64,000 bases of DNA, from assembly GCA_043810345.1 (NCBI GenBank), contig JBDROF010000006.1, forward strand, positions 6,603 through 70,602, written 5' to 3'. Positions 4,832 to 64,000 of this stretch are shown here, one piece after another. The notes under the pieces are model-generated. The model saw nothing but the letters and a program-made list of their open reading frames with translations, searched no databases and was not told the DNA's origin. Source of the DNA: Bacteroidota bacterium. Its GTDB lineage: Bacteria > Bacteroidota > Bacteroidia > Bacteroidales > FEN-979. Position numbers and translations under genes: made by a program. Every line of letters begins with the position of its first letter. Position 1 is the first letter of the stretch.

Positions 4832-4835
4832 AGGA

Positions 4836-4858
4836 CTGCCAACTGCCAACTGCCAACT
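4836..4858. repeat. (CTGCCAA)x3.3 heptamer array
   Basis: Read directly, starting 5 nt after the Fic stop codon. Confidence 0.9.
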
Positions 4859-5459: not shown

Positions 5460-5497
5460 CGCATTTGTCAGTCCCAGGATAGCATTAAACGGGCTCT

Positions 5498-7406: not shown

Positions 7407-7544
7407 CCTGTCCGACTTCTGCGCTTTTTCCAGAGCGATCTGCAGTTCCTTTTCAGCTTTCTTTCGTTCAATGGAGACACTGACCTGCTGGGAAACAAAC
7501 TCCAGTTTTTCCAGATCAGTCTCATCAAAGGCGTGCTTGTCGTT

Positions 7545-8909: not shown

Positions 8910-8948
8910 AATTCCTTATTCCTCATTTTCTTCTTTCCTCTTCCCTCT

Positions 8949-8987
8949 TACCACCCCTCCCTAAATCCCTCCCCAACAAGGGAGGGA
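8949..8987. repeat. GC-tract hairpin element (intergenic copy)
   Basis: ...CCCTCCCTAAATCCCTCCCCAACAAGGGAGGGA. The 21 nt CCCTCCCCAACAAGGGAGGGA are identical to valS 36235-36255. Confidence 0.8.
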
Positions 8988-9003
8988 CTTTCTTCCCTGT
9001 TCC

Positions 9004-9450: not shown

Positions 9451-9483
9451 GGCTTGTTACTTTTCTCAATTTCTATTTTCATA

Positions 9484-48395: not shown

Positions 48396-48412
48396 TGTCA
48401 AAAAAACGTACA
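48396..48412. promoter_or_regulatory. second, imperfect activator site
   Basis: TGTC-AAAAAAACG-TACA (TGTC-N9-TACA). Its centre is 21 bp from the perfect site. Confidence 0.45.
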
Positions 48413-48415
48413 CTA

Positions 48416-48434
48416 GTGTCAAAATATTTGACAC
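48416..48434. promoter_or_regulatory. palindromic upstream activator site (putative EBP binding site)
   Basis: GTGTCAAA-ATA-TTTGACAC has perfect 8-bp arms. The reverse-complement copy lies at 60164-60182. Confidence 0.6.
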
Positions 48435-48454
48435 CTTTAGGTGCTTCCTAAAGG
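48434..48454 (+). terminator. hairpin after the BatA-like gene
   Basis: CCTTTAGG-tgctt-CCTAAAGG, an 8-bp stem 39 nt after the stop, followed by A/T-rich sequence. It lies between the activator sites and the -24/-12 element. Confidence 0.35.
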
Positions 48455-48497
48455 GAAATTATTTTATATCTATCTGTTATACAGATATTTATAATTT

Positions 48498-48513
48498 TGG
48501 TACAATATTTGCA
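48498..48513 (+). promoter_or_regulatory. sigma-54 (-24/-12) promoter of the RiPP operon
   Basis: TGGTAC-aatat-TTGCA compared with the consensus TGGCAC-N5-TTGCW. GG-to-GC spacing is exact, and the precursor ATG is 58 nt downstream. Confidence 0.7.
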
Positions 48514-48570
48514 GTATGGCTAAGTCCATAAGGAAGCAAATAAAAAATATCAATATTAAATTCTAACGCC

Positions 48571-48780
48571 ATGAAAACGTTAAGCATCATCAACCTGCAC
48601 AAAGCCGAGATCAAGAAGAATCTGTTAGCAAAAATCAGAGGTGGAGAAGAAATTAAATGTTTTTGCACGGCGACTAATCCTTACGTCGTCATAAAAAAGC
48701 AGGGCGGTAGCACCAAGCTTTGCTATTGTGATGAAGTAACCACCAGCACTGCAGGCGTTTACAGCAGCACACCGGATTAA
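48571..48780 (+). CDS. RiPP precursor peptide, double-glycine leader, Cys-rich core (GG-Bacteroidales-type)
   Basis: 69 aa. The 25-aa leader MKTLSIINLHKAEIKKNLLAKIRGG is followed by a 44-aa core with CFC and CYC motifs. It sits immediately upstream of the rSAM maturase and downstream of a -24/-12 promoter. Confidence 0.8.
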   Translation: MKTLSIINLHKAEIKKNLLAKIRGGEEIKCFCTATNPYVVIKKQGGSTKLCYCDEVTTSTAGVYSSTPD

Positions 48781-48847
48781 TTCCTAAAAGTGTTACCTTT
48801 GCCACTACCCGAAATGGGCAGGTGTGTAACATGATGTCCAAAGACTG

Positions 48848-50362
48848 ATGAAAAATGCGGTTTTCTTTACATCAGGCAAAGGTAACTGTTATCTGTACAG
48901 CCCGTACAGAAACCAGCTCCGGCTTTGTCATCCTCTGATTCATCACTTTTTTTCTCTCGAAAAAAAAGGCACGAACCTCGGCCGGTGGATCACAACCATT
49001 CAGAAAAATAGAAATCTTACCATTCAGGGAATGGGGACATTCTCCCACTCAGAAGTCAATTATCAGCTGGAAAAATACCGGTTCCTGAAACGAAATGGGT
49101 TCCTGAAACAGGCCAGGGATATCAACATTGAAGGAAGGCTGAAGGCCTCCGATGTGAAGAAAAATATAACCTCCGTCAAGCAGCTCATTTTTGAAGTGAC
49201 GGAAGATTGCAACCTAAACTGCACCTACTGCACCTACAGCAAATATTACATCAACAAAGAGAGACACAACAGCTATTTGTCATTCGGAAATGTCCGGCAT
49301 ACGTTAACGGAGCTGATCTCCAAACGCACCACCTCCCCATCAAACCACCTCATCGTCAGTTTCTACGGAGGCGAACCACTGAAAAATTTCGAACTCATCA
49401 AATCGGTGGTGGAATTTACCGGCAGCTATCCGAAAGATCAGATCTCCTTTACCTACTCCCTCTCCAGCAATGGTCTTTTATTGAAAAAATACATCGCTTT
49501 TCTGGTCGAACATGCCTTTGAGCTCTCCGTTAGCCTCGATGGAGATGAAATAGCCAATTCGTTCCGGGTAACGAAGAACAATAAACCATCGTTTGACATG
49601 GTAACCAAAAACCTCGACTACGTCAGGACACACTATCCCGAATATTTCGAAAAAAACATCAGTTTCCTGACCGTGTTGCATAACCGGAACTCGATCAAAT
49701 CCGTGTTCGAATTCTTCCAGGAACGGTATGGAAAGGTGCCGCAAATGTCGGATGTCAATCCAATCAATCTTAACCCATTGCACGAAAGAGAGTTCCGGGA
49801 GAAGTTGCGATCAAAACCGATCACACCGCAGGAAGAGAAAGAGACCATCAAACAGATGGAGAACAGGCATCCGAAGGTCAGGGAGCTGGCCAAGGTCCTG
49901 GAATATTACTCTGGTTTCGTGTTTAAGAACTACCTGGAGATGATCTCTCCAAAACGGGGAAAGGTCTCTTCCAAAAAGTATATACCAACGGCCACCTGTA
50001 CCCCCTTCTCCATCCGGGCCTATTTTTCGGCCGACGGTACCGTTCTTCCCTGTGAGCATATCAGTCCGTTTTATGGGATCGGCTCCTATTCCGACCACCG
50101 TCTATCCCTTGATCCCGCAGGTATGGCCAGCCTCTACAACAACTATTACGATAAGATCTCCCGGTACTGCAGAAAATGTTATTTCATCGATAACTGCCAG
50201 GAATGTCTCTTCAATACCGGGGTGGAGACAGACCATCCATCCTGCTCATTCTACACCACAGAGACCGGATTCAAGGAGTACCTGAAGAAGCATTACTCCA
50301 ACATTGAGAACGATTATAAGTTTTACCGGAAAACCGCTCAAACCACTTTCTATGAAGGATAA
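48848..50362 (+). CDS. radical SAM/SPASM peptide maturase
   Basis: CNLNCTYC (CX3CX2C) within EVTEDCNLNCTYCTYSKYY. The C-terminal auxiliary-cluster motifs are CTPFSIRAYFSADGTVLPC and CRKCYFIDNCQEC. Confidence 0.9.
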   Translation: MKNAVFFTSGKGNCYLYSPYRNQLRLCHPLIHHFFSLEKKGTNLGRWITTIQKNRNLTIQGMGTFSHSEVNYQLEKYRFLKRNGFLKQARDINIEGRLKASDVKKNITSVKQLIFEVTEDCNLNCTYCTYSKYYINKERHNSYLSFGNVRHTLTELISKRTTSPSNHLIVSFYGGEPLKNFELIKSVVEFTGSYPKDQISFTYSLSSNGLLLKKYIAFLVEHAFELSVSLDGDEIANSFRVTKNNKPSFDMVTKNLDYVRTHYPEYFEKNISFLTVLHNRNSIKSVFEFFQERYGKVPQMSDVNPINLNPLHEREFREKLRSKPITPQEEKETIKQMENRHPKVRELAKVLEYYSGFVFKNYLEMISPKRGKVSSKKYIPTATCTPFSIRAYFSADGTVLPCEHISPFYGIGSYSDHRLSLDPAGMASLYNNYYDKISRYCRKCYFIDNCQECLFNTGVETDHPSCSFYTTETGFKEYLKKHYSNIENDYKFYRKTAQTTFYEG

Positions 50363-51632
50363 TCCTCCATGGCTGTTTCTGGAACCTTATGTACATATGC
50401 TTCACCGGGAGGGAGCCCTTCTTCTATACAATACCATCAGTAAAACCGTGTTGGAGTTCAGCAACTCCCGGGAGCTATCCAAACTTGCAGACGAACTGCT
50501 GGACCCTGACAATGGATATGTGGTCCCCCTGTCTGCCAGTCAGCTTCAGGATCCAGAAGTCCAGGATTTCCTCCACCAGGTCAGGCAACACTTCATGGGA
50601 GATCTCCTCGATCCCTCCTGGTCGGAGTGCAAACCGGTCAACATTGTTCCTGAGCCCTTTGTCAAGCATGGTCTCAGGCCTGTTCCCATACAGAAATCCC
50701 CCCTGAAACCCGGCCTGGAGGTCCGCAATTATTTACAGGAACTCACCCTCTTTTTGAATGCCGGAACCGAACCATCATCCGGTCCATCCGCCAGCGCATA
50801 CCTTCAGTTCTCATACCCCTCCTTAGTTTCAGATAAAGAGGAACAGATGGAGCTTCCCCTCTTCCGTGCGATGATCGATGATGTCAATCTTTATACGCCA
50901 ACGCTGATCCACATCTCCGGTATGAACCTGCTTGCCTATCCCCATTTGGAAGAGGTGATCAGAAAACTGGCATCCAGCCCTTTTCAAAAGAAATATCACC
51001 TCCTTATCGATCACTGGGAGGAACGGATCATCCCTTTTATCCTGGCTCAGAAACAGACTACCCTCGCCCTCTACATCACGTTCCCCTCCCATCCGGAACC
51101 CATCGCCGGGTATCTGCAGAGCCTCCCGGCTCGGAAACTCCTGAAGAGACTGGAGTTCAACTTATTGGTCAGCAACCAGGAGGAGCTGCAGATGGCGCAG
51201 GAAACCGTCAGGATGCTCGACCTTACCAACGTCTATTTCAAGCCTGTCTATAACGGGGAAAATCTTGATTTCTTCAGGCAGCATGTGTTTGTTTCCAGGG
51301 AGGAGATTCTGGCTTCACAACCAGATCAACGGGAGGTGTTCTCCAGGATCTCGATCAACGAAAACGATTTCGGAAAACTCTCTGTTTTCCCCGCAGGGGA
51401 AGCCTATGCCAATTTGAATGATCCCATGATCGGAGAGGCGACAAAGAGCTCCCTGGTTCAGCTGGTCACCCAGGAACTGGACAGGGGAATCAGCTGGCGA
51501 CGAACCCGCGCCGGCGTCACTCCTTGCAACGGGTGTCTCTATCAGTTCCTGTGTCCTCCCATCAGCTCCTATGAGATTTTTCTGAAGCGGTTTAATTTCT
51601 GCGATGTCCATCCAAACGGGAAAGAGTCATGA
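50352..51632 (+). CDS. pseudo-radical-SAM partner protein (no CX3CX2C; SPASM-like C-terminus)
   Basis: The ATG overlaps the maturase by 11 nt. Length and layout resemble the maturase, but the Cys triad position reads ELTLFLNAGTEPSS. C-terminal PCNGCLYQFLCPP...FNFC. Confidence 0.75.
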   Translation: MKDNPPWLFLEPYVHMLHREGALLLYNTISKTVLEFSNSRELSKLADELLDPDNGYVVPLSASQLQDPEVQDFLHQVRQHFMGDLLDPSWSECKPVNIVPEPFVKHGLRPVPIQKSPLKPGLEVRNYLQELTLFLNAGTEPSSGPSASAYLQFSYPSLVSDKEEQMELPLFRAMIDDVNLYTPTLIHISGMNLLAYPHLEEVIRKLASSPFQKKYHLLIDHWEERIIPFILAQKQTTLALYITFPSHPEPIAGYLQSLPARKLLKRLEFNLLVSNQEELQMAQETVRMLDLTNVYFKPVYNGENLDFFRQHVFVSREEILASQPDQREVFSRISINENDFGKLSVFPAGEAYANLNDPMIGEATKSSLVQLVTQELDRGISWRRTRAGVTPCNGCLYQFLCPPISSYEIFLKRFNFCDVHPNGKES

Positions 51633-54016
51633 ACTGGAACTCATTGGTAACCTCTTACCGATTCATGATGAAGAGTAGAATCTTCACCGCCATCAACCTG
51701 ATCGGGCTGACGGCCGGGTTGACGGTCTCCTTTTTCCTGCTGATCTACATCATCAATGAATTAAGTTACAACTCCTTTCATGCCAGAAGCGACCGGATCT
51801 ACCGCATCATCACGCAAACCGAAAAGAATACCATCCCCTTGTCCCCTTCCCTTCTTCCGGCCAGGCTTCAGGAGCAATCCGAGGGTATTTTACAGGCAGG
51901 TGGCATGGTTGAAGTCCAATTCTTAACGGGTCCGGTAAGGGTTAAAAAAGGGCAAAATTACCACGAGGAACCTGGATTTTTCTGTGCCGATCCGGCGGTT
52001 CTGGATATCCTCAGCTTCAACATTGCCGGCGGTGAAGGAGGTGCAGGATTACACAAGGCAGGATCCGTCATGCTTTCACGACCTGTTGCCCTGAAATATT
52101 TTGACCAGGCGGATCCAATCGGGCAGAAGTTGGAGATTAAATCCGGTGGAGTCCCCGTTTCCTTAACCGTTTCCGGTATTTTTGAAAAGCTGCCCTGGAA
52201 CTCCACCATGGAAGTTGACTTTATTGCCGGGATGGATCTTTTCCATTTCCTGCTGAATGAGTTTGGCATTGACCTGGAAACAGAGACGGTGAATTATGCG
52301 GATTTTTATGCAGAAAACTATATTCTGGTTGACCGTCGTGGGAGAATACCTGAACTGATGGATCAGCTCCCATCGCTTCTGGATACCCTGGGACTCACCG
52401 CGCGGAAGATTGCTTTTTCTTTTCAGAACATCCAGGACATTCATCTCGATTCGGAGGAGATTACAAACGATTTCCACCAGAAGGGAACCCGGTCGGCTCT
52501 CTTCTATTATGGCTCACTGGCCTTTGCCATCTTACTGCTTGCCGGCATCAACTACTCTATCCTCAGTACCGCCCGTTCGGCCTTGCGATTTAAGGAGATC
52601 GGGGTCAGGAAGGTCCTGGGAGCTACCAAACGGGAATTACGGATTCAGGTACTCGCCGAATCGATGTTGCTGACCTTTTTGGCCCTGCCCCTCGCTTTTC
52701 TGGTGCTGGGGTTCATTGAGCCCTTTGCCGACCGGTTATATGGGTATGAGATCCAGCTATACACCTGGAACATGCTGATTTACATTCCCCTCTTCGCTGT
52801 CATCACCCTGCTTATCGGATTGACCTCCGGAGGCTATCTTGCCTTTTACCTTTCGGCCCTGAATCCATTGAAAGCTATTAAAAACCAGGTATTTACACGT
52901 CAGCGCTTCAGCCTGAGCAAAGGGTTCATTGTGCTTCAACTGCTGATCACCCTGTTCCTGCTGGGGTGTGTGCTGATCATCTTTGCCCAGCTCGATTATT
53001 GCCTGAATACAAACAGTGGCATACAGAAGAGAGAGCTGTTGATCGTTTCATTCGATCCGGCAGAGTTTCATTTCTACCCCGAGCTTCGTGACCGGATTCA
53101 GGAAGAAGAGGCCGTCGTGTCTGTCTCGGGCAGTTCCATCATTCCTCCCACCAACGCCAGTTCGTTCATCTCGTTTACCATCTCATCCCCCGGTTCATTG
53201 TCAGAAACAGTCCTACTGGAGAATTATTATGTGGACAGAGACTTTTTCACCACCCTTGGTATCGGGATGGTATCAGGTGAAGATATCAGACCGGCAGGGG
53301 GTACCCAATCCGAAGTACCCGTTATTCTCAACCAGGAGGCCAAAGCGCTGCTGGGTCTCGAGCAACCGGTGGGGACCTCTCTTGGTAAAAGCATCGTCAC
53401 GGGAGTGGTCAGGGATTTCAACATCCACTCTTTTCATTCGAAAATTTTACCGGCAGTATTCACCTACAATCCCTCCGAGTGCAGTTACCTGGTGGTCAGA
53501 TGCCAGCCGGGAGCTTTAAAAAAGGCACGTCAACTAGTAGAGAAACACTGGCTTGCGCTGGCACCTGATCTTCCGTTTGCCAGTGCCACATTCGATGATG
53601 AACTGAATCTGATGTACTCCACGGAGCAGAAATTTGGTCAGGTGGTAGCCTCCTTCTCCTTTCTGGCCTTCATCATCACGGGGATGGGTCTTTTTGGTCT
53701 TGCCCTCCTGATGATCGAGCGCCGGTTGAAAGAGATTGCCGTCAGGAAGATCTTCGGCGCCTCGAACCACGACATCCTGTTCCGGGTGCAAAAAGAGTTT
53801 CTGCTGTATATCCTGCTGGCATCAGTGGTTGCCATCCCGGTAACCTGGTATATCATGAACAGCTGGTTATCTTCTTTCTACTATAAAGTTCCGGTACACT
53901 GGTACCTCTTTTTGATTGCCGTCCTGTCCATCACTATTTTTGTATCCTCGATCATCATGATCAGGACCTGGGCTGTTCTGCGTAAGAACCTGATCAACGT
54001 GTTGAGATATGAGTAG
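51629..54016 (+). CDS. ABC transporter permease, FtsX/MacB type (duplicated)
   Basis: 795 aa with a 4-nt overlap upstream. The N-terminal TM helix and periplasmic domain are repeated twice, with FtsX-like TM bundles (...RKVLGATKRELR..., ...RKIFGASNHDIL...). Confidence 0.85.
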   Translation: MNWNSLVTSYRFMMKSRIFTAINLIGLTAGLTVSFFLLIYIINELSYNSFHARSDRIYRIITQTEKNTIPLSPSLLPARLQEQSEGILQAGGMVEVQFLTGPVRVKKGQNYHEEPGFFCADPAVLDILSFNIAGGEGGAGLHKAGSVMLSRPVALKYFDQADPIGQKLEIKSGGVPVSLTVSGIFEKLPWNSTMEVDFIAGMDLFHFLLNEFGIDLETETVNYADFYAENYILVDRRGRIPELMDQLPSLLDTLGLTARKIAFSFQNIQDIHLDSEEITNDFHQKGTRSALFYYGSLAFAILLLAGINYSILSTARSALRFKEIGVRKVLGATKRELRIQVLAESMLLTFLALPLAFLVLGFIEPFADRLYGYEIQLYTWNMLIYIPLFAVITLLIGLTSGGYLAFYLSALNPLKAIKNQVFTRQRFSLSKGFIVLQLLITLFLLGCVLIIFAQLDYCLNTNSGIQKRELLIVSFDPAEFHFYPELRDRIQEEEAVVSVSGSSIIPPTNASSFISFTISSPGSLSETVLLENYYVDRDFFTTLGIGMVSGEDIRPAGGTQSEVPVILNQEAKALLGLEQPVGTSLGKSIVTGVVRDFNIHSFHSKILPAVFTYNPSECSYLVVRCQPGALKKARQLVEKHWLALAPDLPFASATFDDELNLMYSTEQKFGQVVASFSFLAFIITGMGLFGLALLMIERRLKEIAVRKIFGASNHDILFRVQKEFLLYILLASVVAIPVTWYIMNSWLSSFYYKVPVHWYLFLIAVLSITIFVSSIIMIRTWAVLRKNLINVLRYE

Positions 54017-56213
54017 GTTCCCATTTTCACGGCAACTCGATTCCATGGATTGCGGTCCTGCCTGCCTCCAGATGGTCGCCCGTTTTCATGGGAAGAACTA
54101 CTCCCTCTCCACCCTCCGCGACCTCTGTCATATCACCCGCGATGGGGTCACCATGCTGGGGATCAGTGATGCTGCTGAAGCCACCGGATACCATACCCTC
54201 GGTGTAAAGATCAGTTTCGGCGAGCTCCTCGCGGAAGCTCCCCTCCCCTGCATCCTTCACTGGCAACAGAATCACTTCGTGGTGTTGTACCGGGTGAAAG
54301 AAAAGCATGGGAAGAAAAAGCTCTTCATCGCAGATCCGGCCATCGGGAGAGTGAAATACAGTGAGGAGGAGTTTTTGAAAAGATGGCTCTCGGAGGTGAA
54401 ACCGGAGGAAGAACAGAAAGGGATATGCCTGCTTCTGGAACCCACGGAAGCGTTTCATTCAAAGAGGGATGAAGAGACCGGGATGTCGCGCCTCCGGTTC
54501 ATCTTCAGCTACCTGAAACCCCACCGGAAACTCTTCTCACAGCTGGTGCTGGGCATGCTGCTCGGAAGCCTCTTCATGCTGATCTTCCCCTTCCTCACAC
54601 AGTCGATCATCGATGTGGGGATCCAGAACCAGGACCTGAGCTTCATCTTCCTGGTACTGCTGGCCATGATGGCTCTCTTTCTCGGCCAGATCTCAGTGGA
54701 GTTCATCCGGGGGTGGATCCTCCTGCACATCAGTACCCGGATCAACATCTCATTGATCTCCGACTTCCTGATCAAGATCATGAGGCTGCCCATCGGTTTC
54801 TTTGACACCAAACGAACCGGCGACCTGATCCAGCGCATTCTCGACCACGACCGGATACAGTCCTTTCTCACTGTCAGTTCACTCAGCATTCTCTTTTCCA
54901 TCGTGAACTTCATCATCTTCGGACTGGTTCTCCTGGCTTACAACTCCACAATCTTTCTGGTTTTTATAGCGGGCAGCATGCTCTATGGCCTCTGGGTTTA
55001 CCTGTTCATGAACCGCAGGAAAGAGCTCGATTACGCCCGTTTCTCCTACATGGCTGAAAATCAGGGGAACCTCTTTCAACTGGTAACCGCCATGCAGGAG
55101 ATCAAACTGAACAATTGTGAAAGGGAGAAACGATGGGATTGGGAACGGATCCAGGCCAAACTCTTCCGGGTGAGTTTAAGGAGCCTCTCCCTGACACAGT
55201 ACCAGAATGTGGGAGCCCTGTTTTTCATTCGTACCAAAGACATTGTGATCATTTTCTTATCTGCCTCACTGGTATTGAAAGGGGAACTTACCCTGGGGAT
55301 GATGCTGGCTATCCAGTACATCCTCGGACAGGTCAACAACCCGGTGGAACAGATGGTCAACTTCATCCGGGAAGCACAGGATGCCACCATCAGCATGTCC
55401 CGTCTGGATGAGGTAAGCTCCCTGAAAGAGGAAGAGGGGCCGGACGACCATCTTGTGAAGAGCATCCCGCCGGATCATGGTATCCGCATCTGCCAGCTCT
55501 CTTTTCAGTACGAGGGACCTCATTCCCCCTTCGTTTTGAAAGATCTGAATCTGGTCATCCCCGATCAGAAAATCACCGCCATTGTCGGGCCAAGCGGTAG
55601 CGGGAAGACCACGCTGATCAAGCTGATGCTGGGCTTCTATCCACCTGTAAGGGGAACGATCTCTGTGGGAGACCTGCCTCTGCAACACATCTCTCCGCAG
55701 TACTGGCGTACCCTTTGCGGTGCGGTCATGCAGGAGGGATTTATCTTTTCCGACTCCATTGCCAGCAACATTGCCATGAGCCTGGAACAGGTGGAGCCGG
55801 AAAAGTTTTCCCGGGCGATCAGGATCGCCAACCTGACTGAATTCGTAGATTCGCTGCCTACCGGCCTCCGGACCAAGATCGGATCCGAGGGACACGGGAT
55901 CAGCGAAGGGCAAAAACAACGGGTCCTGATCGCCCGGGCGGTCTATAAAGATCCTGAATTCATCTTCTTCGACGAAGCTACTAACTCCCTGGATGCCAAT
56001 AATGAGATGATGATCATCGAAAATCTGAAGGAATTTTTTGCCGGGAAAACGGTGGTGGTGGTAGCGCACCGGCTAAGCACAGTGAAAAATGCCGACCAGA
56101 TTGTAGTGCTCGATCAGGGCTGTATCCTGGAGCAGGGCACTCACCACGAGCTCACCAGTCTCCGTGGGGCTTATTATGAATTGGTTAAAAATCAACTTGA
56201 ACTTGGATATTAA
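54009..56213 (+). CDS. peptidase C39 domain-containing ABC exporter (double-glycine leader cleavage/export)
   Basis: QLDSMDCGPACLQMV (catalytic Cys), HWQQNHFVVLY (His), 6-TM ABC domain, Walker A GPSGSGKTT, signature SEGQKQR, and Walker B IFFDEAT. Confidence 0.9.
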   Translation: MSRFPFSRQLDSMDCGPACLQMVARFHGKNYSLSTLRDLCHITRDGVTMLGISDAAEATGYHTLGVKISFGELLAEAPLPCILHWQQNHFVVLYRVKEKHGKKKLFIADPAIGRVKYSEEEFLKRWLSEVKPEEEQKGICLLLEPTEAFHSKRDEETGMSRLRFIFSYLKPHRKLFSQLVLGMLLGSLFMLIFPFLTQSIIDVGIQNQDLSFIFLVLLAMMALFLGQISVEFIRGWILLHISTRINISLISDFLIKIMRLPIGFFDTKRTGDLIQRILDHDRIQSFLTVSSLSILFSIVNFIIFGLVLLAYNSTIFLVFIAGSMLYGLWVYLFMNRRKELDYARFSYMAENQGNLFQLVTAMQEIKLNNCEREKRWDWERIQAKLFRVSLRSLSLTQYQNVGALFFIRTKDIVIIFLSASLVLKGELTLGMMLAIQYILGQVNNPVEQMVNFIREAQDATISMSRLDEVSSLKEEEGPDDHLVKSIPPDHGIRICQLSFQYEGPHSPFVLKDLNLVIPDQKITAIVGPSGSGKTTLIKLMLGFYPPVRGTISVGDLPLQHISPQYWRTLCGAVMQEGFIFSDSIASNIAMSLEQVEPEKFSRAIRIANLTEFVDSLPTGLRTKIGSEGHGISEGQKQRVLIARAVYKDPEFIFFDEATNSLDANNEMMIIENLKEFFAGKTVVVVAHRLSTVKNADQIVVLDQGCILEQGTHHELTSLRGAYYELVKNQLELGY

Positions 56214-56214
56214 C

Positions 56215-56718
56215 ATGACCCAACAACCAACCGATCAGGAAAAATACAGCCGGGAAGTGGAAGAGATATTGCACAAACGACCTGCCTTGCTGGTTCGCAA
56301 GGGAATCCTCCTGCTCACCATCCTTGTCATCCTCCTCCTGGTGGGTTCCCATTTCATTAAGTACCCCGAGAAACTGACTGCCTCGGTCACGTTCGACACC
56401 GTTGCCGTCCACGATTCGATCCTCCTTCAGGGCCGGATCATCCTGACCTCGGCAGCGGCCTCCATCGTGAAGCCGGGACAACCGGTTGTGATGCTCCTGC
56501 GTACGACTCCAGAAAGCACGCCCGTTGACGTAACCGGAACCATAGAAGCCCTGCTTCCTATGGGCCGGGGCGACTATTACACTGTGCTGGTTCAGCCCGA
56601 TACCCAGACTGAGCTTTTAGGGCATGAAGGTACGGCCAGCATTTTGATAGGTGAAACAAATCTGCTGACCCAAATATTAAATCCGGTTTTTGCAGTATTC
56701 CGATCTGCTGACCAATAG
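56215..56718 (+). CDS. truncated HlyD-family adaptor-like protein (167 aa)
   Basis: The N-terminus SREVEEILHKRPALLVRKGILLLTILVILLLVGSHFIKYPEKLTASV matches the HlyD-type anchor. The C-terminal beta-domain-like part is present, but there is no room for the coiled-coil hairpin. Confidence 0.55.
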   Translation: MTQQPTDQEKYSREVEEILHKRPALLVRKGILLLTILVILLLVGSHFIKYPEKLTASVTFDTVAVHDSILLQGRIILTSAAASIVKPGQPVVMLLRTTPESTPVDVTGTIEALLPMGRGDYYTVLVQPDTQTELLGHEGTASILIGETNLLTQILNPVFAVFRSADQ

Positions 56719-56730
56719 AGGAAGAACGTT

Positions 56731-57402
56731 ATGATAATAATCAAAGAATTGACGAAAGTGTTCCAGGCGGAGGATGTCCAGACGATGGCCCTGAACCAGG
56801 TGGATTTTGAGGTCGCGGAAGGCGAGTTCGTAGCGATCATGGGCCCGTCAGGATGTGGAAAATCTACCCTGCTCAACATCATAGGGATGTTGGACGAGCC
56901 CAACAGCGGCCAATATGAATTCCTGAACCATAACATCTTCGAGCTGCCAGAAAAAGAGCGAACCGCCATACGGAAAAAGAACATCGGTTTTGTTTTTCAG
57001 AATTTCAACCTGATCGACGAATTGACCATATTCGAGAATGTTGAGCTGCCACTGATCTACCTGGGAGTACCTGCACCCGAACGCAAAGTGAAGGTGATTG
57101 AAATGCTGGAAGAACTGGAGATGGCTCACCGGAAAAAATATTTCCCCATGCAACTTTCGGGAGGGCAGCAGCAACGGATTGCTGTGGCCCGGGCGCTGGT
57201 TGTGAACCCCGCTCTCCTGCTCGCAGATGAACCCACGGGTAACCTCGACTCCCTCCATGGAGATGAGGTGATGAACCTCTTCATCAAGCTCAATGATGCC
57301 GGTACCACCATTGTGATGGTAACCCACTCGGCTCGGGATGCCGAATACAGCACACGCATCGTTAACCTGTTCGACGGGCAGATCGTATCGGAGAGGTATT
57401 AA
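56731..57402 (+). CDS. ABC transporter ATP-binding protein (MacB/LolD type)
   Basis: Walker A GPSGCGKST, LSGGQQQR, Walker B LLADEPTGNLD. Confidence 0.9.
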   Translation: MIIIKELTKVFQAEDVQTMALNQVDFEVAEGEFVAIMGPSGCGKSTLLNIIGMLDEPNSGQYEFLNHNIFELPEKERTAIRKKNIGFVFQNFNLIDELTIFENVELPLIYLGVPAPERKVKVIEMLEELEMAHRKKYFPMQLSGGQQQRIAVARALVVNPALLLADEPTGNLDSLHGDEVMNLFIKLNDAGTTIVMVTHSARDAEYSTRIVNLFDGQIVSERY

Positions 57403-58748
57403 ATCCTGATCGTAAACACCGTATTTCCTGGCGACGACTGCACCGTCATGCTGCCGCCGTGGAGCCTGATGATCTGGCGGGAGAGGCTGAGGCCTATGCC
57501 TGAACCCGACTGTTTGGTGGTGAAGAAAGGAACAAAGATATCATCTATCAACTCCGGGGGAATCCCGTTCCCGTTATCGGAGACCTGGATTATCAGTTGA
57601 TCCTGTGCCGAGTGTGCAGCCAGTTCTACCACCGGGGATTCTGCCTCGTCAAGGGCCTCTGATGCATTTTTAACGAGATTGATCAGTACCTGCTCCAGCA
57701 ACGAGCCATCGGCATTGATAAAAATGGAAGGATGGCAGTTGATCCGGAGGTCAATTCCACCGACTGCAAGTTGAGATTCGAAGAGGTGTAATACCCGTTG
57801 CAGAAGGTCCTTGACATTGACAATCTTGAAGTCGGGTTTAGGTAAACGGGTAATGCTGCGGTAGTTCTGCACGAAACTGATCAACCCTTTCCCACGGGAA
57901 TCAATCAGGTCCAGCCCTTTTACTGTCCGGGCCATTATATCATGGGTGACCTCAGCAGGCTCTATCAACTCCGGTTTGTCTCTGCGCCGGAGTTTCTTCA
58001 CGATGCTTCCTACCAGGGTGACGATCGGAGTCATTGAATTCATGATCTCATGGGTCAATACCCGGATCAGACGTTGCCACGATTCGATCTCCTTCTCTTC
58101 CAATTCAGGCTTGATATTCTGAAAAGAGACCAGGTGCAACTCTTCATTCATCGTCCGGAACTTGACCTTTTTGGTAGCCAGCTGGATCAGCTCACCTTCC
58201 AGGATCAGGGAGATCAGTTTCCGGTCGTTCGATGCCAGGTTGATCAGCATCTCGCTGAATCCATCCTTGATGTTGTTCAACTTCCTGAGGTTTCGCAATA
58301 CCTGCATCCCAAATATCTTTTTGGCTGCCTCGTTGAAGAGTTCCACCGAACCATCTGCCTTGAACGAAATCAATCCGACAGCCGTTTCGTCGACGATGGT
58401 TTTGAAGTAGTTGTTCTGTATCTCATTTTTCAGTCTCGCCTGCTCCAGTTTGTCGTTGATCAGGTCGAAATACATATAGAGCGGACTGAATTCATCCTTT
58501 TTGTTCCGGCGCACATTGGATGAGGTAACCTCACCACTGAGGTAAAAGAGAAAAAAGTTCTCGAGCTTCTTGTTGATGGAGTTCAGGTACCGGGTAAGCA
58601 TGACCACCTGGTAAATGAAGAGGGCTCCGAGGGCTATGATGACGGAATAGTTAGGATGGATAAAGAAAGAAAGGCACAGCAGGAAACAGGACAGTGAGAT
58701 AAGTACCAAACGGATGATCAGATGATAGAAATACCTTTTAGAGACCAT
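57399..58748 (-). CDS. membrane sensor histidine kinase (NtrB/ZraS-like), partner of the sigma-54 regulator
   Basis: Two N-terminal TM helices, a PAS-like region, H-box LTHEIMNSMTPI, then NLVKNASEA, DNGNGIP and GSGIGLSLSRQI. Confidence 0.85.
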   Translation of the reverse strand: MVSKRYFYHLIIRLVLISLSCFLLCLSFFIHPNYSVIIALGALFIYQVVMLTRYLNSINKKLENFFLFYLSGEVTSSNVRRNKKDEFSPLYMYFDLINDKLEQARLKNEIQNNYFKTIVDETAVGLISFKADGSVELFNEAAKKIFGMQVLRNLRKLNNIKDGFSEMLINLASNDRKLISLILEGELIQLATKKVKFRTMNEELHLVSFQNIKPELEEKEIESWQRLIRVLTHEIMNSMTPIVTLVGSIVKKLRRRDKPELIEPAEVTHDIMARTVKGLDLIDSRGKGLISFVQNYRSITRLPKPDFKIVNVKDLLQRVLHLFESQLAVGGIDLRINCHPSIFINADGSLLEQVLINLVKNASEALDEAESPVVELAAHSAQDQLIIQVSDNGNGIPPELIDDIFVPFFTTKQSGSGIGLSLSRQIIRLHGGSMTVQSSPGNTVFTIRI

Positions 58749-60120
58749 ACCGTTTCATTTTGTTATAAATGGTCTGCCTCGAGATACCCAGTTCCCGGGC
58801 AGCACTGGTCATGTTACCCATGTGCCGGAGGAGTGCTTTCCGTATGATCTCCTTTTCAAAATCACCGTAGGATCCGTTCATTTCGGCTGGTTGCATCGGT
58901 TGCCCGGGCATTTTCTTCAGGTAAAGGTCCTCCGGCCTCACTGTATTCCCTTCAGCCAGGATGACCGCCTTCTCAATGGAGTGCTCCAGCTCACGAATAT
59001 TTCCGGGCCAAACATAGGTTCTCATGGCCATCAGGGCATCCTTGGAAAATGCCAGTTTACCCCGGTCGTATTTGGCAGTGCACCGGTGCAGAAAATGGTT
59101 AGCCATCAGCTCGATATCACTTCCCCTTTCACGCAATGGGGGAAGATCGATCTGAATGGTATTGATCCGGAAGAGAAGATCCTGCCGGAACAATCCTTCC
59201 ATTACCAGTTTGTCGAGGTTTTTATTTGTGGCACAGATCAGGCGGATGTCGATGGGAATAATTTTATTGGATCCCAGCGGAATGATTTGCCGTTCCTGCA
59301 GAACGTTCATGACCTTCGCCTGCATATTCAAAGAAAAATTTCCAATCTCATCCAGGAAGAGGGTTCCTCCGGAGGCGGTTTCAAAGCGACCGATCCGGTC
59401 CTGCTTGGCATCAGTAAATGCCCCTTTCTTGTGGCCGAACATCTCACTTTCAAAGAGTGTCAGAGGAATGGAGGCCATATCAACGGTGATCATCGCTTCA
59501 TTTGAGCGGGATGAGCGTTTATGGATCTCCCTGGCAATCAACCCCTTGCCGGTCCCATTCTCTCCTGTGATCAGGATATTGACATCGGTTTTACTTACCT
59601 TCTCCACGATCTCCATCACCCGGCTCATCTGGGGGCACTGAACGATGATCTCGGAATACTGCTGATCCAGTTCGGCGGTCAGCTGATCCTGCCGGTTGCG
59701 GAGTTTCTCGATCTCCTTGGTCGACTCCCGGAGCTTTAAGGCTGTACGCAATGTTGCCAGGAGTTTATCATTATCCCATGGCTTGATGATGAAATCAACG
59801 GCACCATTCTTCATGGCCTTCACAGCAAGCTCTACATCTCCGTAAGCTGTCATCATGATGACACTCAAAGAAGGATCCACCTTCAGGATCTCTTTCAACC
59901 AGTAAAGACCTTCGTTTCCCGTCACCACCCCCGCCGAGAAATTCATATCCAGCAAAACCAGGTCAAAGGATTCATTCTTCAGGGTGCTGACGATCATGTT
60001 TGGTGTCTTCAATCCGGTAACCAGGGAAAACTCATCTTCCAGAAACAACTCCAGCGCTTCCAGGATCTCTTTGTTATCTTCAACGATGAGCAGGTTTCCA
60101 TTTTTCGACATATGGTACAA
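58738..60120 (-). CDS. sigma-54-dependent response regulator (NtrC-family enhancer-binding protein)
   Basis: REC (LLIVEDNKEIL...LVLLDMNF), AAA+ domain with GENGTGKG and the sigma-54 contact loop GAFTDA, and a C-terminal Fis-type HTH AARELGISRQTIYNKMKRYG. The start may instead be the ATG at 60111. Confidence 0.9.
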   Translation of the reverse strand: MYHMSKNGNLLIVEDNKEILEALELFLEDEFSLVTGLKTPNMIVSTLKNESFDLVLLDMNFSAGVVTGNEGLYWLKEILKVDPSLSVIMMTAYGDVELAVKAMKNGAVDFIIKPWDNDKLLATLRTALKLRESTKEIEKLRNRQDQLTAELDQQYSEIIVQCPQMSRVMEIVEKVSKTDVNILITGENGTGKGLIAREIHKRSSRSNEAMITVDMASIPLTLFESEMFGHKKGAFTDAKQDRIGRFETASGGTLFLDEIGNFSLNMQAKVMNVLQERQIIPLGSNKIIPIDIRLICATNKNLDKLVMEGLFRQDLLFRINTIQIDLPPLRERGSDIELMANHFLHRCTAKYDRGKLAFSKDALMAMRTYVWPGNIRELEHSIEKAVILAEGNTVRPEDLYLKKMPGQPMQPAEMNGSYGDFEKEIIRKALLRHMGNMTSAARELGISRQTIYNKMKRYGL

Positions 60121-60142
60121 TTTTACACTTTTTTACTACGAG

Positions 60143-60159
60143 TGTCCAAATTTAATACA
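60143..60159. promoter_or_regulatory. second, imperfect activator site (copy 2)
   Basis: TGTC-CAAATTTAA-TACA. Its centre is 22 bp from the perfect site. Confidence 0.45.
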
Positions 60160-60163
60160 ATTA

Positions 60164-60182
60164 TTGTCAAATATTTTGACAC
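60164..60182. promoter_or_regulatory. palindromic upstream activator site (copy 2)
   Basis: TTGTCAAA-TAT-TTTGACAC, in the divergent intergenic region between the EBP gene and the hybrid kinase gene. Confidence 0.6.
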
Positions 60183-60243
60183 TTTTAAAACTTTTTTTTT
60201 ACCCTTCGTAAATAACATATTGATTATCAATAAAATAATTTTA

Positions 60244-60259
60244 TGGCCTGATTTTTGCT
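60244..60259 (+). promoter_or_regulatory. sigma-54 (-24/-12)-like promoter upstream of the hybrid kinase gene
   Basis: TGGCCT-gattt-TTGCT with exact GG-to-GC spacing, about 100 nt upstream of the ATG at 60362. Confidence 0.5.
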
Positions 60260-60361
60260 ATCTTCCTGTGCTACATGGTTAATTTTGCTCCGTTACACCC
60301 TGACTGGCTAGTTGTGTAATTTTTTAGTTAAAACCAGCACTAAAGTGAACTCTTAAGATGT

Positions 60362-62416
60362 ATGAAAAGACGGGATGAGGCAACGCGGAATGTATTAGAG
60401 GTGATCCCTGATATCCTCCTGTGGTTTGATGACCATGGGCAGTTACTCGATTTTCACCCGAACAACCACGCTTTCTTATTCGACAGGGAAGGAGGAGTTG
60501 TTGGCTGTTCACTGGAAGAGATCTTCAACCGGGAGGTCAGCACACAGATGCTGGAACTGGCCGGGATCTGCAGGGAGCAGAACAAACTACAATCGGGACA
60601 GGTTATTTACAGAATCAATGGATCGGTTTCCATGTTCGAGTGCAGGATCGCTCCGGCGGATGCCAATTCCTTTATTACAGGATGGAGAAAGATCACGCAT
60701 CTGAGTGAATCACGAAAAGTCGATCTGATCAACGGCAACAGCCAGGTTACGCTGGTGCTGCTGACCGAGAGTTCACTTGATGAAGCGATCAATCGCTCCT
60801 TAAAGATCCTTGGGGAGACCTATGAGGCCGACCGTATCATCTTATTCCAGAATCATCTCGATCCTGAATCAGGGGAGGCATCCATGACCCTCCAGCAAGA
60901 GTGGTCCCATCCCGATATGGTTCACAGTCTGGGGAACCTGAACTTATCCCATATCTCTTATCATCCTGACCATACCCAGTTATATGAGACGCTGGAAAAC
61001 GACACCCCGGTGATTGCGATCACGGAGGATCTGAACCAGGAGGCCCAGGGGTTTTTAAACCGGATGGACATCCTGTCGGTGGTCATCATGCCGGTCTGCG
61101 TGAGAAAAACCTTCTGGGGTTTCCTGGGCATCGGTGATTGCCGTTTGCCACGTGCCTGGAAAGAAGAGGAGGTTGGCGCTTTCAGGGCAATTTCCATGGT
61201 GCTTGGGGCAGTGATACAAAAACACCAGGATCAGGATGAGCTGACGATTGCCAGGTTACGAGCTGAGGAGTCGGACCGCCTGAAAAGTTCCATCCTGGCC
61301 AACATCAACCATGAGTTACGTACTCCCATGACTGGCATCCTCGGATTTTCAGAGATCCTTTGTGAACAACTGGGAAATGCAGAGGCTCGCCAGATGGCTG
61401 AAAACATCCAGGTTAGTGGCCGCAGACTGTTATCCACCCTGAACAGTATGATTGAGTTATCCCAGTTTGAAGCCAAAAAGGCGCTCTTCAAACTGAGGGA
61501 GACCAAACTCAACGAGTTGATCCTGCTTACATGTGAGCCGCATCTCGCGGGAGCCAAGCAAAAGAAACTTGGTTTTGAGATCTATATGAATGAATCGATA
61601 TTCTCCTATATCGACGAAAAACTTTTCACACAGCTCCTGAACCATATCCTGGAGAACGCAGTGAAGTTCACCCATTCAGGCAGGATTATCGTGGAAACCT
61701 GTAACGAATGGGAGGAAGGGAGACCGTGGTCCTGCATTCGTATTACTGATACAGGCCCTGGTATTCCCGCCGAGTTCCATGAGCTGATTTTTGAAGAGTT
61801 CCGGCAGGTCAGTGAAGGATACAATCGCAGTTTTGAAGGAAGCGGACTCGGACTTACACTTGCTAAAAAGATCGTCGAACTGATGAATGGCAAACTTACC
61901 CTTACCAGCCATAAAGAAAAAGGCAGCACCTTCTCCATCTGGCTCCCCTCCAGTCAGTTGAGTACATCCGAATTCCAATTCTTTGTTAAGGAACCGGTGT
62001 CCTTTCCTGAAACAGTCGAGTGCCCCGTTCCGGAGACGAAAAAGGACCTTCCCACCGTCCTCATCGTGGAAGACAACCGGTTAAACAGTGATCTGATCCT
62101 CATATACCTCAGTGCCCAATACAATTGCGATGTGGCCCGCGATGGCGAATCGGCAGTGGAGATGGCCCTGAACACAAAGTATGACACCATCCTGATGGAT
62201 ATCCACCTGGGATCAGGAATCGATGGCATGGAGGCTACCCGCCGGATCCGATCTCTCAGCGGCTACCAACTCACTCCCATCATCGCTGTCACCGGTTATA
62301 CCATGGAGTCAGACAAAGAAGAGATCATGGATTCAGGGTGTTCCCACTACCTTCCCAAACCAATCGATAAAACAGAGCTGTCCAACCTCATCGCCAGCCT
62401 GGTGGGCAAGAAGTAG
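60362..62416 (+). CDS. PAS-GAF hybrid sensor histidine kinase with C-terminal receiver
   Basis: H-box NHELRTPMTGILGF, plus NAVKFT, DTGPGIP, GSGLGLTLAKK and REC VLIVEDNRLN...ILMDIHLGSGIDG...KP. Confidence 0.9.
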   Translation: MKRRDEATRNVLEVIPDILLWFDDHGQLLDFHPNNHAFLFDREGGVVGCSLEEIFNREVSTQMLELAGICREQNKLQSGQVIYRINGSVSMFECRIAPADANSFITGWRKITHLSESRKVDLINGNSQVTLVLLTESSLDEAINRSLKILGETYEADRIILFQNHLDPESGEASMTLQQEWSHPDMVHSLGNLNLSHISYHPDHTQLYETLENDTPVIAITEDLNQEAQGFLNRMDILSVVIMPVCVRKTFWGFLGIGDCRLPRAWKEEEVGAFRAISMVLGAVIQKHQDQDELTIARLRAEESDRLKSSILANINHELRTPMTGILGFSEILCEQLGNAEARQMAENIQVSGRRLLSTLNSMIELSQFEAKKALFKLRETKLNELILLTCEPHLAGAKQKKLGFEIYMNESIFSYIDEKLFTQLLNHILENAVKFTHSGRIIVETCNEWEEGRPWSCIRITDTGPGIPAEFHELIFEEFRQVSEGYNRSFEGSGLGLTLAKKIVELMNGKLTLTSHKEKGSTFSIWLPSSQLSTSEFQFFVKEPVSFPETVECPVPETKKDLPTVLIVEDNRLNSDLILIYLSAQYNCDVARDGESAVEMALNTKYDTILMDIHLGSGIDGMEATRRIRSLSGYQLTPIIAVTGYTMESDKEEIMDSGCSHYLPKPIDKTELSNLIASLVGKK

Positions 62417-62471
62417 CGCCTGTTTTTAATCCCCGGATAATTTTCTATTTTTACATGGTCAAAACCGCACC

Positions 62472-63683: not shown

Positions 63684-63768
63684 TTCACATACTTCCCTGC
63701 CACTTTTCTTGATAAAATCCATCCATTTTCCGAAAATAAGTGGTACCTTGCAGATAAACTTTCACAAA

Positions 63769-63966
63769 ATGAAGCTCGATAAATTTGAAAACAGGCACTA
63801 TCTGTTTAACTATCAGAAGGCTATTCCCAAAGAGAAGCAGGAGAATGGGTCAACCAAGGATAAGTTTCCCGTGGTTCTTGACGACGGGAAGACAATCATC
63901 TTTATATCCGACAAAAAGAAGAAACAAGAGGTCATCGAAAGGTATAAAAACAGGTTGAACCATTAG
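63769..63966 (+). CDS. hypothetical small protein
   Basis: 65 aa from the first ATG (MKLDKFENRHY...). The longer track ORF overlaps the symporter gene. I recognise no motif. Confidence 0.35.
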   Translation: MKLDKFENRHYLFNYQKAIPKEKQENGSTKDKFPVVLDDGKTIIFISDKKKKQEVIERYKNRLNH

Positions 63967-64000
63967 ATTCTGCCGAACACTTTTCAACCAATACTTTTCT

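Follow-up and report, generated by a model that had tools for sequence, protein, structure and literature searches.

Gene content of the locus

In the stretch of DNA analysed here (64,000 nt of contig JBDROF010000006.1 from a Bacteroidota bacterium, called the window throughout), the core region 48396-62416 carries a compact gene block that probably produces a cysteine cross-linked RiPP, that is, a ribosomally made, post-translationally modified peptide, under the control of the alternative sigma factor sigma-54 (RpoN). Seven open reading frames (ORFs) on the + strand, spanning 48571-57402, are followed by a kinase gene and a regulator gene that run convergently on the - strand, and a tenth gene lies beyond the regulator:

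48571..48780, + strand: precursor peptide, 69 aa (ORF translation; alignment of 38 orthologues)
48848..50362, + strand: radical S-adenosylmethionine (rSAM)/SPASM maturase, 504 aa, whose N-terminal domain is similar to a RiPP recognition element (RRE, which binds leader peptides) (TIGR04148, PF04055, AlphaFold model)
50352..51632, + strand: pseudo-rSAM, 426 aa counted from its ATG (TIGR04150, predicted fold)
51629..54016, + strand: duplicated FtsX/MacB-type ABC permease, 795 aa (PF02687 in two stretches, PF12704)
54009..56213, + strand: C39 peptidase-containing ABC exporter (PCAT), 734 aa (PF03412, PF00664, PF00005)
56215..56718, + strand: truncated membrane-fusion protein, 167 aa (HlyD_3 alignment)
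56731..57402, + strand: ABC ATPase of the MacB/FtsE/LolD type, 223 aa, presumed partner of the FtsX permease (PF00005)
57399..58748, - strand: histidine kinase, 449 aa (HATPase_c; NtrB, PhoR and AtoS models from about residue 112)
58738..60111, - strand: NtrC-type sigma-54 enhancer-binding protein (EBP), 457 aa (PF00072, PF00158, PF25601, PF02954)
60362..62416, + strand: hybrid sensor kinase (GAF, HisKA, HATPase_c, receiver), candidate cargo of a second promoter (Pfam)

An earlier account made from the letters alone, the sequence-only reading, had listed the first nine of these genes; all ten are present, the listed ones where it placed them, with each quoted motif visible in the translations. 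Its assignments likewise stand for the 69-aa precursor and the leader ending LLAKIRGG (both by translation), the 504-aa rSAM maturase (TIGR04148 and PF04055), the FtsX/MacB-type permease (PF02687 and PF12704), the C39-peptidase exporter (PF03412, with DCGPAC and GPSGSGKTT in the translation), the ABC ATPase (PF00005), and the membrane kinase with its NtrC-type EBP (HATPase_c; Sigma54_activat, Response_reg and HTH_8). The tight seven-gene RiPP operon that it proposed is also recovered, given a GG leader, a Cys-rich core, matches to TIGR04148 and TIGR04150, a C39 exporter and short junctions throughout: a 67-nt gap between precursor and rSAM genes, overlaps of 11 nt (rSAM/pseudo-rSAM, the latter lying directly 3' of the former), 4 nt (pseudo-rSAM/FtsX) and 8 nt (FtsX/C39), and gaps of 1 nt before and 12 nt after the 167-aa ORF. 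The start of the EBP was placed at the ATG that gives 457 aa, the length called in relatives. At the far end of the operon the ATPase gene (+) and the kinase gene (-) converge with a 4-nt overlap at 57399-57402 that leaves no space for terminators, so that operon and regulator transcripts would collide or overlap.

Precursor peptide

The precursor consists of a leader (residues 1-25, MKTLSIINLHKAEIKKNLLAKIRGG) and a core of 44 aa, in which positions 5, 7, 26 and 28 are Cys, and it is 100% identical to database protein P0191, annotated 'hypothetical protein'. This small ORF is conserved beside homologous maturases, and 38 distinct orthologues align without difficulty, with a mean pairwise identity of 67% in the leader and 37% in the core. 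The 25-residue leader follows the consensus MKxLSLxNLxKAEIKKNxLAxIKGG, and the core retains as its only invariants a [K/R/H]-C-x-C motif, a Pro five residues on and a second C-x-C, the two CxC pairs being commonly separated by a GG(P/S/T) linker.

The sequence-only reading had identified precursor, maturase and pseudo-rSAM with the TIGRFAM 'GG-Bacteroidales' trio. This holds for two of the three, as TIGR04148 and TIGR04150 pass their cutoffs, whereas the window precursor matches neither TIGR04149 nor PF14406 nor any other Pfam model, even at E<=10. As a positive control, TIGR04149 recognised Bacteroides-type precursors at 52.7 and 48 bits (cutoff 25); one sibling precursor from the window's own subclade reaches 19.3 bits against the same cutoff, and another sibling is labelled TIGR04149 by its source. 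The precursor family is small: it comprises 21 clusters at the 90% identity level, and a profile search of 1.84 billion proteins with the precursor alignment brought up about nine real representatives at 50% identity. From that search P0217 (807 aa), a eukaryotic-looking low-complexity repeat protein, was rejected as a false positive; P0218 (207 aa), which has a full precursor core C-terminal to an unrelated 160-residue sequence, was also set aside as probably a mis-called or chimeric metagenomic gene.

Three relatives (L011, L020 and L036) possess two tandem precursor genes each, about 250-550 nt upstream of the maturase, and the second copy in L036 is devoid of its own sigma-54 promoter. For the region 3' of the window precursor gene, a search for a terminator or attenuator hairpin returned a fold energy no better than that of shuffled sequences (z=-0.94). 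Furthermore, precursors next to distant TIGR04148 maturases combine a GG leader with repeated CxC (GGNCCSCSCYY; SCACYCP...CGCS), at these positions:

L052: 8923-9189
L053: 1705-1866
L054: 9580-9771
L055: 8942-9395
L062: 150-332

Because CxC recurs in these distant precursors, the pair looks like a family-wide recognition or reaction motif.

Maturase and pseudo-rSAM

The maturase passes NCBIfam model TIGR04148 (GG_samocin_CFB) with 370.7 bits against a cutoff of 300 (E=1.1e-110, residues 97-495). It contains CNLNCTYC (CX3CX2C) and the C-terminal CRKCYFIDNCQEC (CX2CX5CX2C), and ten Cys are invariant in 60 homologues, namely C121/C125/C128 together with C384, C402, C441, C444, C450, C453 and C466. 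All seven Cys of a SPASM domain are therefore present and invariant, including G397-x4-C402 and the CX2CX5CX2C stretch, as the sequence-only reading had proposed, although the SPASM model PF13186 itself yields no match at E<=0.01. The AlphaFold model (predicted local distance difference test, pLDDT, 90.2) displays an N-terminal strand-and-helix domain of the RRE type, and its best match in the PDB is CteB (5WGG, E=1.6e-19) over the full length, followed by anSME in second place and ChlB.

Among named NCBIfam models, those nearest to the protein are CcpM, the lachnocin maturase, RumMC, anSME, PapB and the SCIFF maturase; by their names, RumMC, PapB and SCIFF stand for sactipeptide, ranthipeptide and thioether maturases, and anSME for a sulfatase maturase. 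Cyclophane- and ether-forming SPASM models match as well. With 90 bits against a cutoff of 720, the protein is not a member of the RumMC sactisynthase model NF035951, and a literature search on CcpM or lachnocin returned nothing relevant.

The second maturation protein, the pseudo-rSAM, is 100% identical to database protein P0121 and scores 312.3 bits with TIGR04150, above the cutoff of 250, in a match that spans residues 23-435 of the long ORF; a 2023 survey lists this pseudo-rSAM family without an assigned function (PMC10352776). CX3CX2C is absent, and the sole conserved Cys are the near-invariant C392, C395, C401 and C417, in the arrangement CX2CX5CX15C. The sequence-only reading had called the protein a paralogue of the maturase without the Cys triad. 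The triad is indeed missing and kinship is visible at the level of profile and fold: an alignment of the pseudo-rSAM with the rSAM profile by hhalign runs in register over the rSAM core (E=2.6e-4, probability 43%), and the AlphaFold model (pLDDT 89.8) matches CteB (E=7.5e-10), SuiB, TigE, SkfB and anSME as its top PDB entries in Foldseek. In contrast, a direct BLASTP comparison of the two proteins shows no kinship (E=0.18, uninformative), and a sequence search of the PDB with the pseudo-rSAM gave noise only. Judged by the predicted structure, we take the pseudo-rSAM to be a catalytically dead maturase homologue with the overall fold of a peptide maturase, one in which a metal or Fe-S site and the capacity to bind the leader may have persisted.

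Transport genes

Two ABC systems are encoded in the operon. The permease comprises about eight transmembrane helices and two large periplasmic domains in a hydropathy scan, and the ADOP and DarB models match it below their cutoffs (DarB 78.8 bits vs 700). Its presumed ATPase has its best NCBIfam matches, again below cutoff, to DarD (271.1 bits; cutoff 375) and to a lactococcin-972 ABC model (214 bits; cutoff 254.85). The C39 exporter is complete, with the Peptidase_C39 domain (120 bits, DCGPAC), a transmembrane domain and a nucleotide-binding domain (GPSGSGKTT); its top NCBIfam matches are bacteriocin and NHLP exporters below their cutoffs, TIGR01193 for instance at 406.8 bits vs 523.85.

The 167-aa ORF, which matches no NCBIfam or Pfam family, had been described as an HlyD-like stub, and alignment agrees: with the full-length HlyD_3 protein of 432 aa that adjoins the exporter in a Bacteroides locus (L059), its residues 7-59 align to residues 8-60 (E=2e-13) and its residues 47-124 to residues 301-381 (E=0.006). 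It has one N-terminal transmembrane helix (residues 25-43) and a barrel-like C-terminal part. By these alignments it reads as a membrane-fusion protein minus its central ~270 residues. Relatives have the ORF only if their maturase shares at least 63% identity with that of the window, and in the subgroup of 40-49% identity it is gone. Neither an outer-membrane channel gene nor an intact membrane-fusion protein was found among the ORFs and family matches of the locus. As the membrane-fusion protein is truncated or lost and no channel gene is linked, one-step export by a PCAT, a fusion protein and TolC is unlikely, and the simplest reading of the gene set is that the peptide is probably delivered to the periplasm.

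Kinase and enhancer-binding protein

The histidine kinase has two transmembrane helices (residues 10-28 and 34-52) joined by a loop of about five residues, then a PAS-like region, a phospho-acceptor domain (DHp) and an ATP-binding domain (CA). This pattern of two helices and a short loop occurs in 28/28 orthologues (the window plus 27 distinct subclade N-termini), the loop containing a conserved Pro-Asn (Arg-Asn in L016); with only some five residues between its helices, the kinase has no periplasmic sensing domain.

Its partner, the EBP, combines a receiver, an AAA+ domain (PF00158, 213.9 bits) and a Fis-type helix-turn-helix, and no protein of the block is better conserved (63-97% identity). 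GENGTGKG and GAFTDA are its signature motifs, and 25 of 26 orthologues have GAFTDA with GENGTGK. No curated EBP model reaches its cutoff, the best being TIGR02915 with 409 bits vs 502.6.

Promoters and operators

Two intergenic regions, one before the precursor gene and one before the EBP gene, contain the candidate regulatory elements:

48395..48413, no strand: upstream activator site 1, GTGTCAAAAAAACGTACAC (GTGT-N11-ACAC), abutting the batA stop codon
48416..48434, no strand: upstream activator site 2, the perfect palindrome GTGTCAAAATATTTGACAC (pattern search)
48498..48513, + strand: sigma-54-type promoter, TGGTACAATATTTGCA (TGGTAC-AATAT-TTGCA), -24 GG and -12 GC at canonical spacing
60142..60182, no strand: second operator pair (60142-60160 and 60164-60182), GTGTCAAAATATTTGACAA on the - strand, 31-71 bp upstream of the EBP ATG
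60244..60259, + strand: second sigma-54-type promoter, TGGCCTGATTTTTGCT (TGGCCT-GATTT-TTGCT), pointing away from the EBP gene and toward the hybrid kinase

The precursor promoter lies 73 nt before the ATG, and the palindromes lie 64-103 bp upstream of it. Site 2 starts 21 bp after site 1, a spacing that places both on the same side of the helix, and its centre lies ~75 bp ahead of the -24 GG. A terminator-like hairpin at 48434-48454 (CCTTTAGG-loop-CCTAAAGG, then a T-rich run), probably the terminator of batA, separates the operator sites from the promoter.

The single match of TGGYAY-N5-TTGC in the 64-kb window (48498-48512) is not significant alone, since 31/100 shuffled sequences give at least one. 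Its conservation carries the argument: TGGYAY-N5-TTG is found in 37/38 distinct orthologous precursor upstream regions, against a mean of 0.2 and a maximum of 3 in shuffles, at 52-85 nt before the ATG in 36 of the 37, and the one region without it belongs to the second gene of a tandem precursor pair. Likewise, GTGT-N11-ACAC occurs in 30/38 of these regions (0.6 expected by chance), and the operator pattern has six matches in the window (0.99 expected), all in the two intergenic regions. The palindrome GTGTCAAAATATTTGACAC is even identical, at the same relative position, in L001, L011, L012, L013, L014, L024 and L045. In nine more distant family members both promoter and operator are missing upstream of the precursors. 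The sigma-54 circuit with sites visible in the DNA, as the sequence-only reading had it, is thus backed by comparison among relatives, and the second regulon promoter at 60244-60259 goes beyond its account of the locus.

This second unit is also conserved. In most subclade loci, operator sites are found between +20 and +45 relative to the EBP start, and 21/24 subclade loci have a -24/-12 element at +121 to +138. What varies is the gene beyond: a hybrid kinase in the window's close group (a homologue lies beyond the EBP in L003 and L047), in another group a membrane protein of ~293 aa with an N-terminal transmembrane helix, and in a third a soluble protein of ~178 aa that starts MAEQTxxIHIxGYWR. 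The cargo genes of the sister lineages are at:

L006: 20951-21517
L038: 19296-20174
L021: 15220-15753
L029: 20875-21408

The ~293-aa and ~178-aa proteins have no Pfam or NCBIfam match and could be immunity or effector proteins. As to the hybrid kinase (60362-62416), we noticed a signalling cluster elsewhere in the window, at 4740-11013, part of which is 32% identical to it; the cluster includes a HisKA-HATPase-receiver hybrid (6273-7406, - strand), a receiver-GAF-GAF protein (7545-8909, - strand) and a PAS-GAF kinase (9484-11013, - strand).

Inside the operator at 60142-60160, TAAATTTG (60147-60154, - strand) fits TAnnTTTG, which we take to be the -7 box of the primary sigma factor of Bacteroidetes, and it is situated ~36-43 nt upstream of the EBP ATG. 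With such a box within the operator, binding of the EBP could repress its own operon while activating the divergent promoter.

Relatives and inheritance

A search of clusters at 90% identity found 435 relatives of the maturase at E<=1e-20, and scanning one genome for each species gave 80 loci; the ten window proteins together with those of the flanking genes gdh and batA were compared with 89 loci. Wherever the maturase is at least 40% identical and the contig reaches far enough, the full block is kept in the order precursor, rSAM, pseudo-rSAM, FtsX permease, C39 exporter, ATPase, kinase (-) and EBP (-), in ~36 species-level metagenome-assembled genomes, all labelled uncultured Bacteroidales, Prolixibacteraceae or similar. 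A co-occurrence check suggested with the sequence-only reading therefore finds the block genes together in these loci, with the 167-aa ORF restricted as described above. Kinase and EBP are present in 29/29 distinct subclade loci that extend far enough.

Loci with a maturase at most 34% identical (from Bacteroides, Parabacteroides, Prevotella, Aminicenantes and others) retain only precursor, rSAM and pseudo-rSAM, some of them also with a C39 exporter and a full HlyD protein, and none of those among the 89 has the set of permease, ATPase, kinase and EBP. Weak FtsX-like matches (21-28% identical) occur in the distant loci L055, L061, L063 and L069. No kinase and EBP follow the maturase genes of distant loci in the subclade arrangement, and three of these loci have weak, unrelated matches elsewhere.

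The sequence-only reading had spoken of an island, and in this it did not hold. The same chromosomal position is occupied in most relatives, with gdh-batA upstream of the block; batA identity tracks rSAM identity (Spearman 0.81); the GC content of the region (0.45-0.53) is inside the range of the window; and no close plasmid copy of the maturase exists among the matches, the best plasmid match (32% identical) belonging to a distant branch. We therefore reject a genomic island and regard the block, by this comparison of sequences, as an ancestral, vertically inherited locus of one lineage. Such inheritance at a core-genome position suggests a physiological or signalling role and not only strain-level warfare. 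Distant maturases (30-32% identical) were seen on plasmids NZ_OY725758.1 (Parabacteroides distasonis) and OY726044.1 (Phocaeicola massiliensis), which indicates that the wider family is mobile though this subclade is chromosomally fixed.

Elsewhere the window encodes core functions (dnaE, htpG, cytochrome bd) and type IX secretion cargo, and a Fic-domain protein lies at 3749-4831. An Rfam scan of 46000-64000 found no match, and simple sigma-70 and terminator scans stayed at background level.

Discussion

How might such a locus work? We consider it likely that it is a chromosomally fixed regulon with two sigma-54-dependent promoters, whose main output is a cysteine cross-linked RiPP; sigma-54 dependence, peptide chemistry and leader cleavage are all inferred from sequence. 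In this scheme the kinase would phosphorylate the NtrC-type EBP, which would bind the 19-bp palindromes GTGTMAAA-N3-TTTKACAC and activate sigma-54 RNA polymerase at 48498-48513, upstream of the seven-gene operon, and also at 60244-60259, upstream of the hybrid kinase gene here and of other genes in sister lineages. The 25-residue leader would then be bound by the RRE-like N-terminal domains of the rSAM, the pseudo-rSAM or both. The rSAM, with three [4Fe-4S] clusters predicted from its ten invariant Cys, would abstract hydrogen from acceptor residues and join these to the four invariant Cys of the core, the pseudo-rSAM perhaps acting as a non-catalytic partner. Up to four thioether bridges in two pairs could result, possibly as a double hairpin like that of ruminococcin C, an idea that we draw from the analogy with ruminococcin C1 and from the thioether bias of the nearest enzymes. 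Subsequently, the C39 exporter would cut after Gly24-Gly25 and move the 44-residue core across the inner membrane, probably for delivery to the periplasm, where the duplicated MacB-type permease and its ATPase would expel the peptide or protect the producer, and may report peptide flux to the kinase. Read from the genes, the most likely product is a peptide of 44 residues that bears up to four thioether bridges.

Several observations weigh against this scheme. The support for every member of the family is computational. Because the precursor fails TIGR04149 and the maturase scores 90 bits vs 720 with RumMC, the prediction of thioethers and of a double hairpin is one by analogy, and enzymes of the rSAM/SPASM type are also able to form C-C and ether links, epimers or formylglycine. 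Membrane-fusion protein and TolC are missing here though MacB pumps normally need both, so that the second ABC system may serve expulsion, self-protection or signalling. On the regulatory side, TTGC at -12 is replaced by TTGT or TTGA in about one in four orthologous promoters, the EBP loop reads GAFTDA and not the canonical GAFTGA, and no RpoN box, and thus no rpoN gene, was found in the 64-kb window. Finally, the cytoplasmic PAS-like region of the kinase could sense a cue unrelated to the peptide.

The peptide might instead be mainly a self-signal, a pheromone whose exported, modified form re-activates the kinase in a quorum circuit like that of NisRK and nisin, killing not being its main function; we deem this unlikely, though it accounts for several features. 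The locus has a vertical, fixed core-genome position in each subclade genome examined, unlike typical strain-variable bacteriocin islands. Regulator and operator are the best-conserved parts, the operator lies over the EBP gene's own upstream region and would allow feedback, and a second, variable output gene is under the same predicted control. However, the ~5-residue kinase loop in all 28 orthologues leaves no obvious peptide-binding surface on the outside, and the core is hypervariable while the kinase N-terminus stays similar; moreover, the proposal is built from sequence comparisons. It is not exclusive, being compatible with the preferred two-promoter RiPP regulon if sensing goes through the ABC transporter.

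With regard to the chemistry, we judge it rather improbable that the rSAM installs a modification other than a thioether (a C-C or C-O cross-link, an epimerisation, or conversion of Cys to formylglycine), leaving the Cys to form disulfides or to bind metal in a redox or metal-binding peptide. The literature searched has no characterised family member, the second-best structural match of the rSAM is anSME, a Cys/Ser oxidase, cyclophane- and ether-forming SPASM models are among its matches, and paired CxC motifs are common metal ligands. But RumMC, PapB and SCIFF, among the top models, are thioether-forming, and the best structural match is CteB, likewise thioether-forming; Cys is the sole residue class conserved across subclade and distant precursors; and the core has no conserved aromatic or Lys/Arg motif typical of cyclophane substrates.

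More doubtful still is the reading that the locus is no plain bacteriocin cluster but a closed signalling device, in which the MacB-type ABC system would act as co-sensor for the kinase and through it for the EBP, so that peptide traffic sets the operon and the variable second output, with the pseudo-rSAM as an obligatory partner. Here the ABC system may co-sense by analogy with flux sensing of the Bce type, on behalf of a kinase without an external domain, and the pseudo-rSAM may carry an Fe-S cluster and bind the leader. If true, this role of the pseudo-rSAM would define how the whole TIGR04148/TIGR04150 family works.

That the kinase/EBP pair and the sigma-54-like motifs are chance neighbours with no control over the peptide operon, for which the non-significance of the lone promoter match and the missing rpoN in the window might speak, is extremely improbable and is contradicted by promoter and operator conservation (motif and position persist in 37/38 loci down to 40% maturase identity vs 0.2 expected), by palindromes common to the precursor promoter and the EBP upstream region, by the second unit, by the constant linkage of kinase and EBP in the subclade, which is not so arranged in distant loci, and by the loss of the motifs in distant members.

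Two-component systems and ABC transporters are frequent in RiPP clusters, so the locus with its two-promoter RiPP regulon is no categorical surprise, and it has no practical use before the product is made. Control of a RiPP in this manner would nevertheless be unusual and specific to one uncultured Bacteroidales/Prolixibacteraceae clade. The lineage offers a clean test, with one 69-aa substrate, four invariant Cys, two adjacent maturase genes and models whose confidence suffices for construct design. Its regulatory map, too, can be tested: two sigma-54 promoters, an operator of 19 bp, a kinase without a periplasmic sensor and a second output that varies. As all members come from uncultured organisms, such tests must be heterologous.

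Comparison with known systems

Clusters with TIGR04148 and TIGR04150 were reported in Bacteroides by 2015 (PMC4573289). In agreement with the sequence-only reading, neither a product nor a cross-link, target or mode of regulation is described for the family in the literature searched, nor did we find there a sigma-54-controlled RiPP or a description of Bce-type co-sensing coupled to a sigma-54 EBP. The combination of two ABC systems with a sigma-54 two-component circuit, which that reading had flagged as undescribed, was equally not met in this literature and is found only in one uncultured lineage. With the GG-Bacteroidales set of Bacteroides and Parabacteroides our locus shares the order precursor-rSAM-pseudo-rSAM, GG leaders, CxC-rich cores and an often adjacent C39 exporter. 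The subclade differs from that set by further genes and sites, namely an FtsX permease in duplicated form and the ATPase that goes with it, the kinase/EBP pair, and two sigma-54 promoters together with their operators; its membrane-fusion protein is truncated or lost, and its chromosomal position is fixed, whereas some distant members reside on plasmids.

As regards the peptide, the closest likeness is to ruminococcin C (RumC1-5, matured by RumMC in Ruminococcus gnavus), which also has a 44-residue core, a CxC near the N-terminus, a second Cys pair in mid-peptide and, joining the halves, a conserved linker that contains Gly. RumC1, 44 aa long, forms a double hairpin with four thioethers from Cys to C(alpha), Cys 3, 5, 22 and 26 being bridged to A12, N16, R34 and K42, and a two-component system controls it (PMC6760926). 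In contrast, the second Cys pair has the form CxC in our peptide, against CxxxC in RumC1, and the bridges of our peptide are predicted from its sequence. The RumC host is Gram-positive, without a pseudo-rSAM, sigma-54 control or a MacB-type transporter.

On the side of the enzymes, both the rSAM and the pseudo-rSAM models match CteB, the SCIFF/thermocellin maturase (5WGG/5WHY), over their full length, and the rSAM shows the seven-Cys SPASM pattern, which likens it to CteB, SuiB and anSME. However, sequence identity amounts to 10-16%, the pseudo-rSAM has lost the triad and most SPASM Cys, and CteB works alone, without a dead paralogue.

The second ABC system resembles the MacB-type (type VII) DarBCD and lactococcin-972 ABC systems in its FtsX and MacB periplasmic domains and its separate ATPase, yet with both DarB and DarD below cutoff it is not counted as a darobactin exporter, and unlike a tripartite MacB pump it has no full membrane-fusion protein. 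MacB is a 4-helix and BceB a 10-helix permease. The kinase shares with BceS a pair of transmembrane helices and a minimal loop. Unlike BceAB-BceS, the permease here is a tandem duplication of ~8 helices with two periplasmic domains, the regulator is NtrC-type and not OmpR-type, and the kinase has a PAS-like region.

Finally, the regulatory part is reminiscent of NtrB/NtrC and its relatives (AtoSC, ZraSR and the PEP-CTERM pair PrsK/PrsR) in the domain set of the EBP, in the tandem palindromes before a GG-N10-GC promoter and in an operator that overlaps the upstream region of the regulator gene. It differs from these examples in its GAFTDA loop, in having a RiPP operon as its predicted target and in reaching no curated EBP cutoff. 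What is new is thus the assembly as a whole, which is specific to one lineage: a sigma-54 regulon of two promoters and a defined operator, a kinase without a periplasmic sensor, a MacB-type ABC system in duplicated form, a membrane-fusion protein in decay and inheritance at a fixed chromosomal site.

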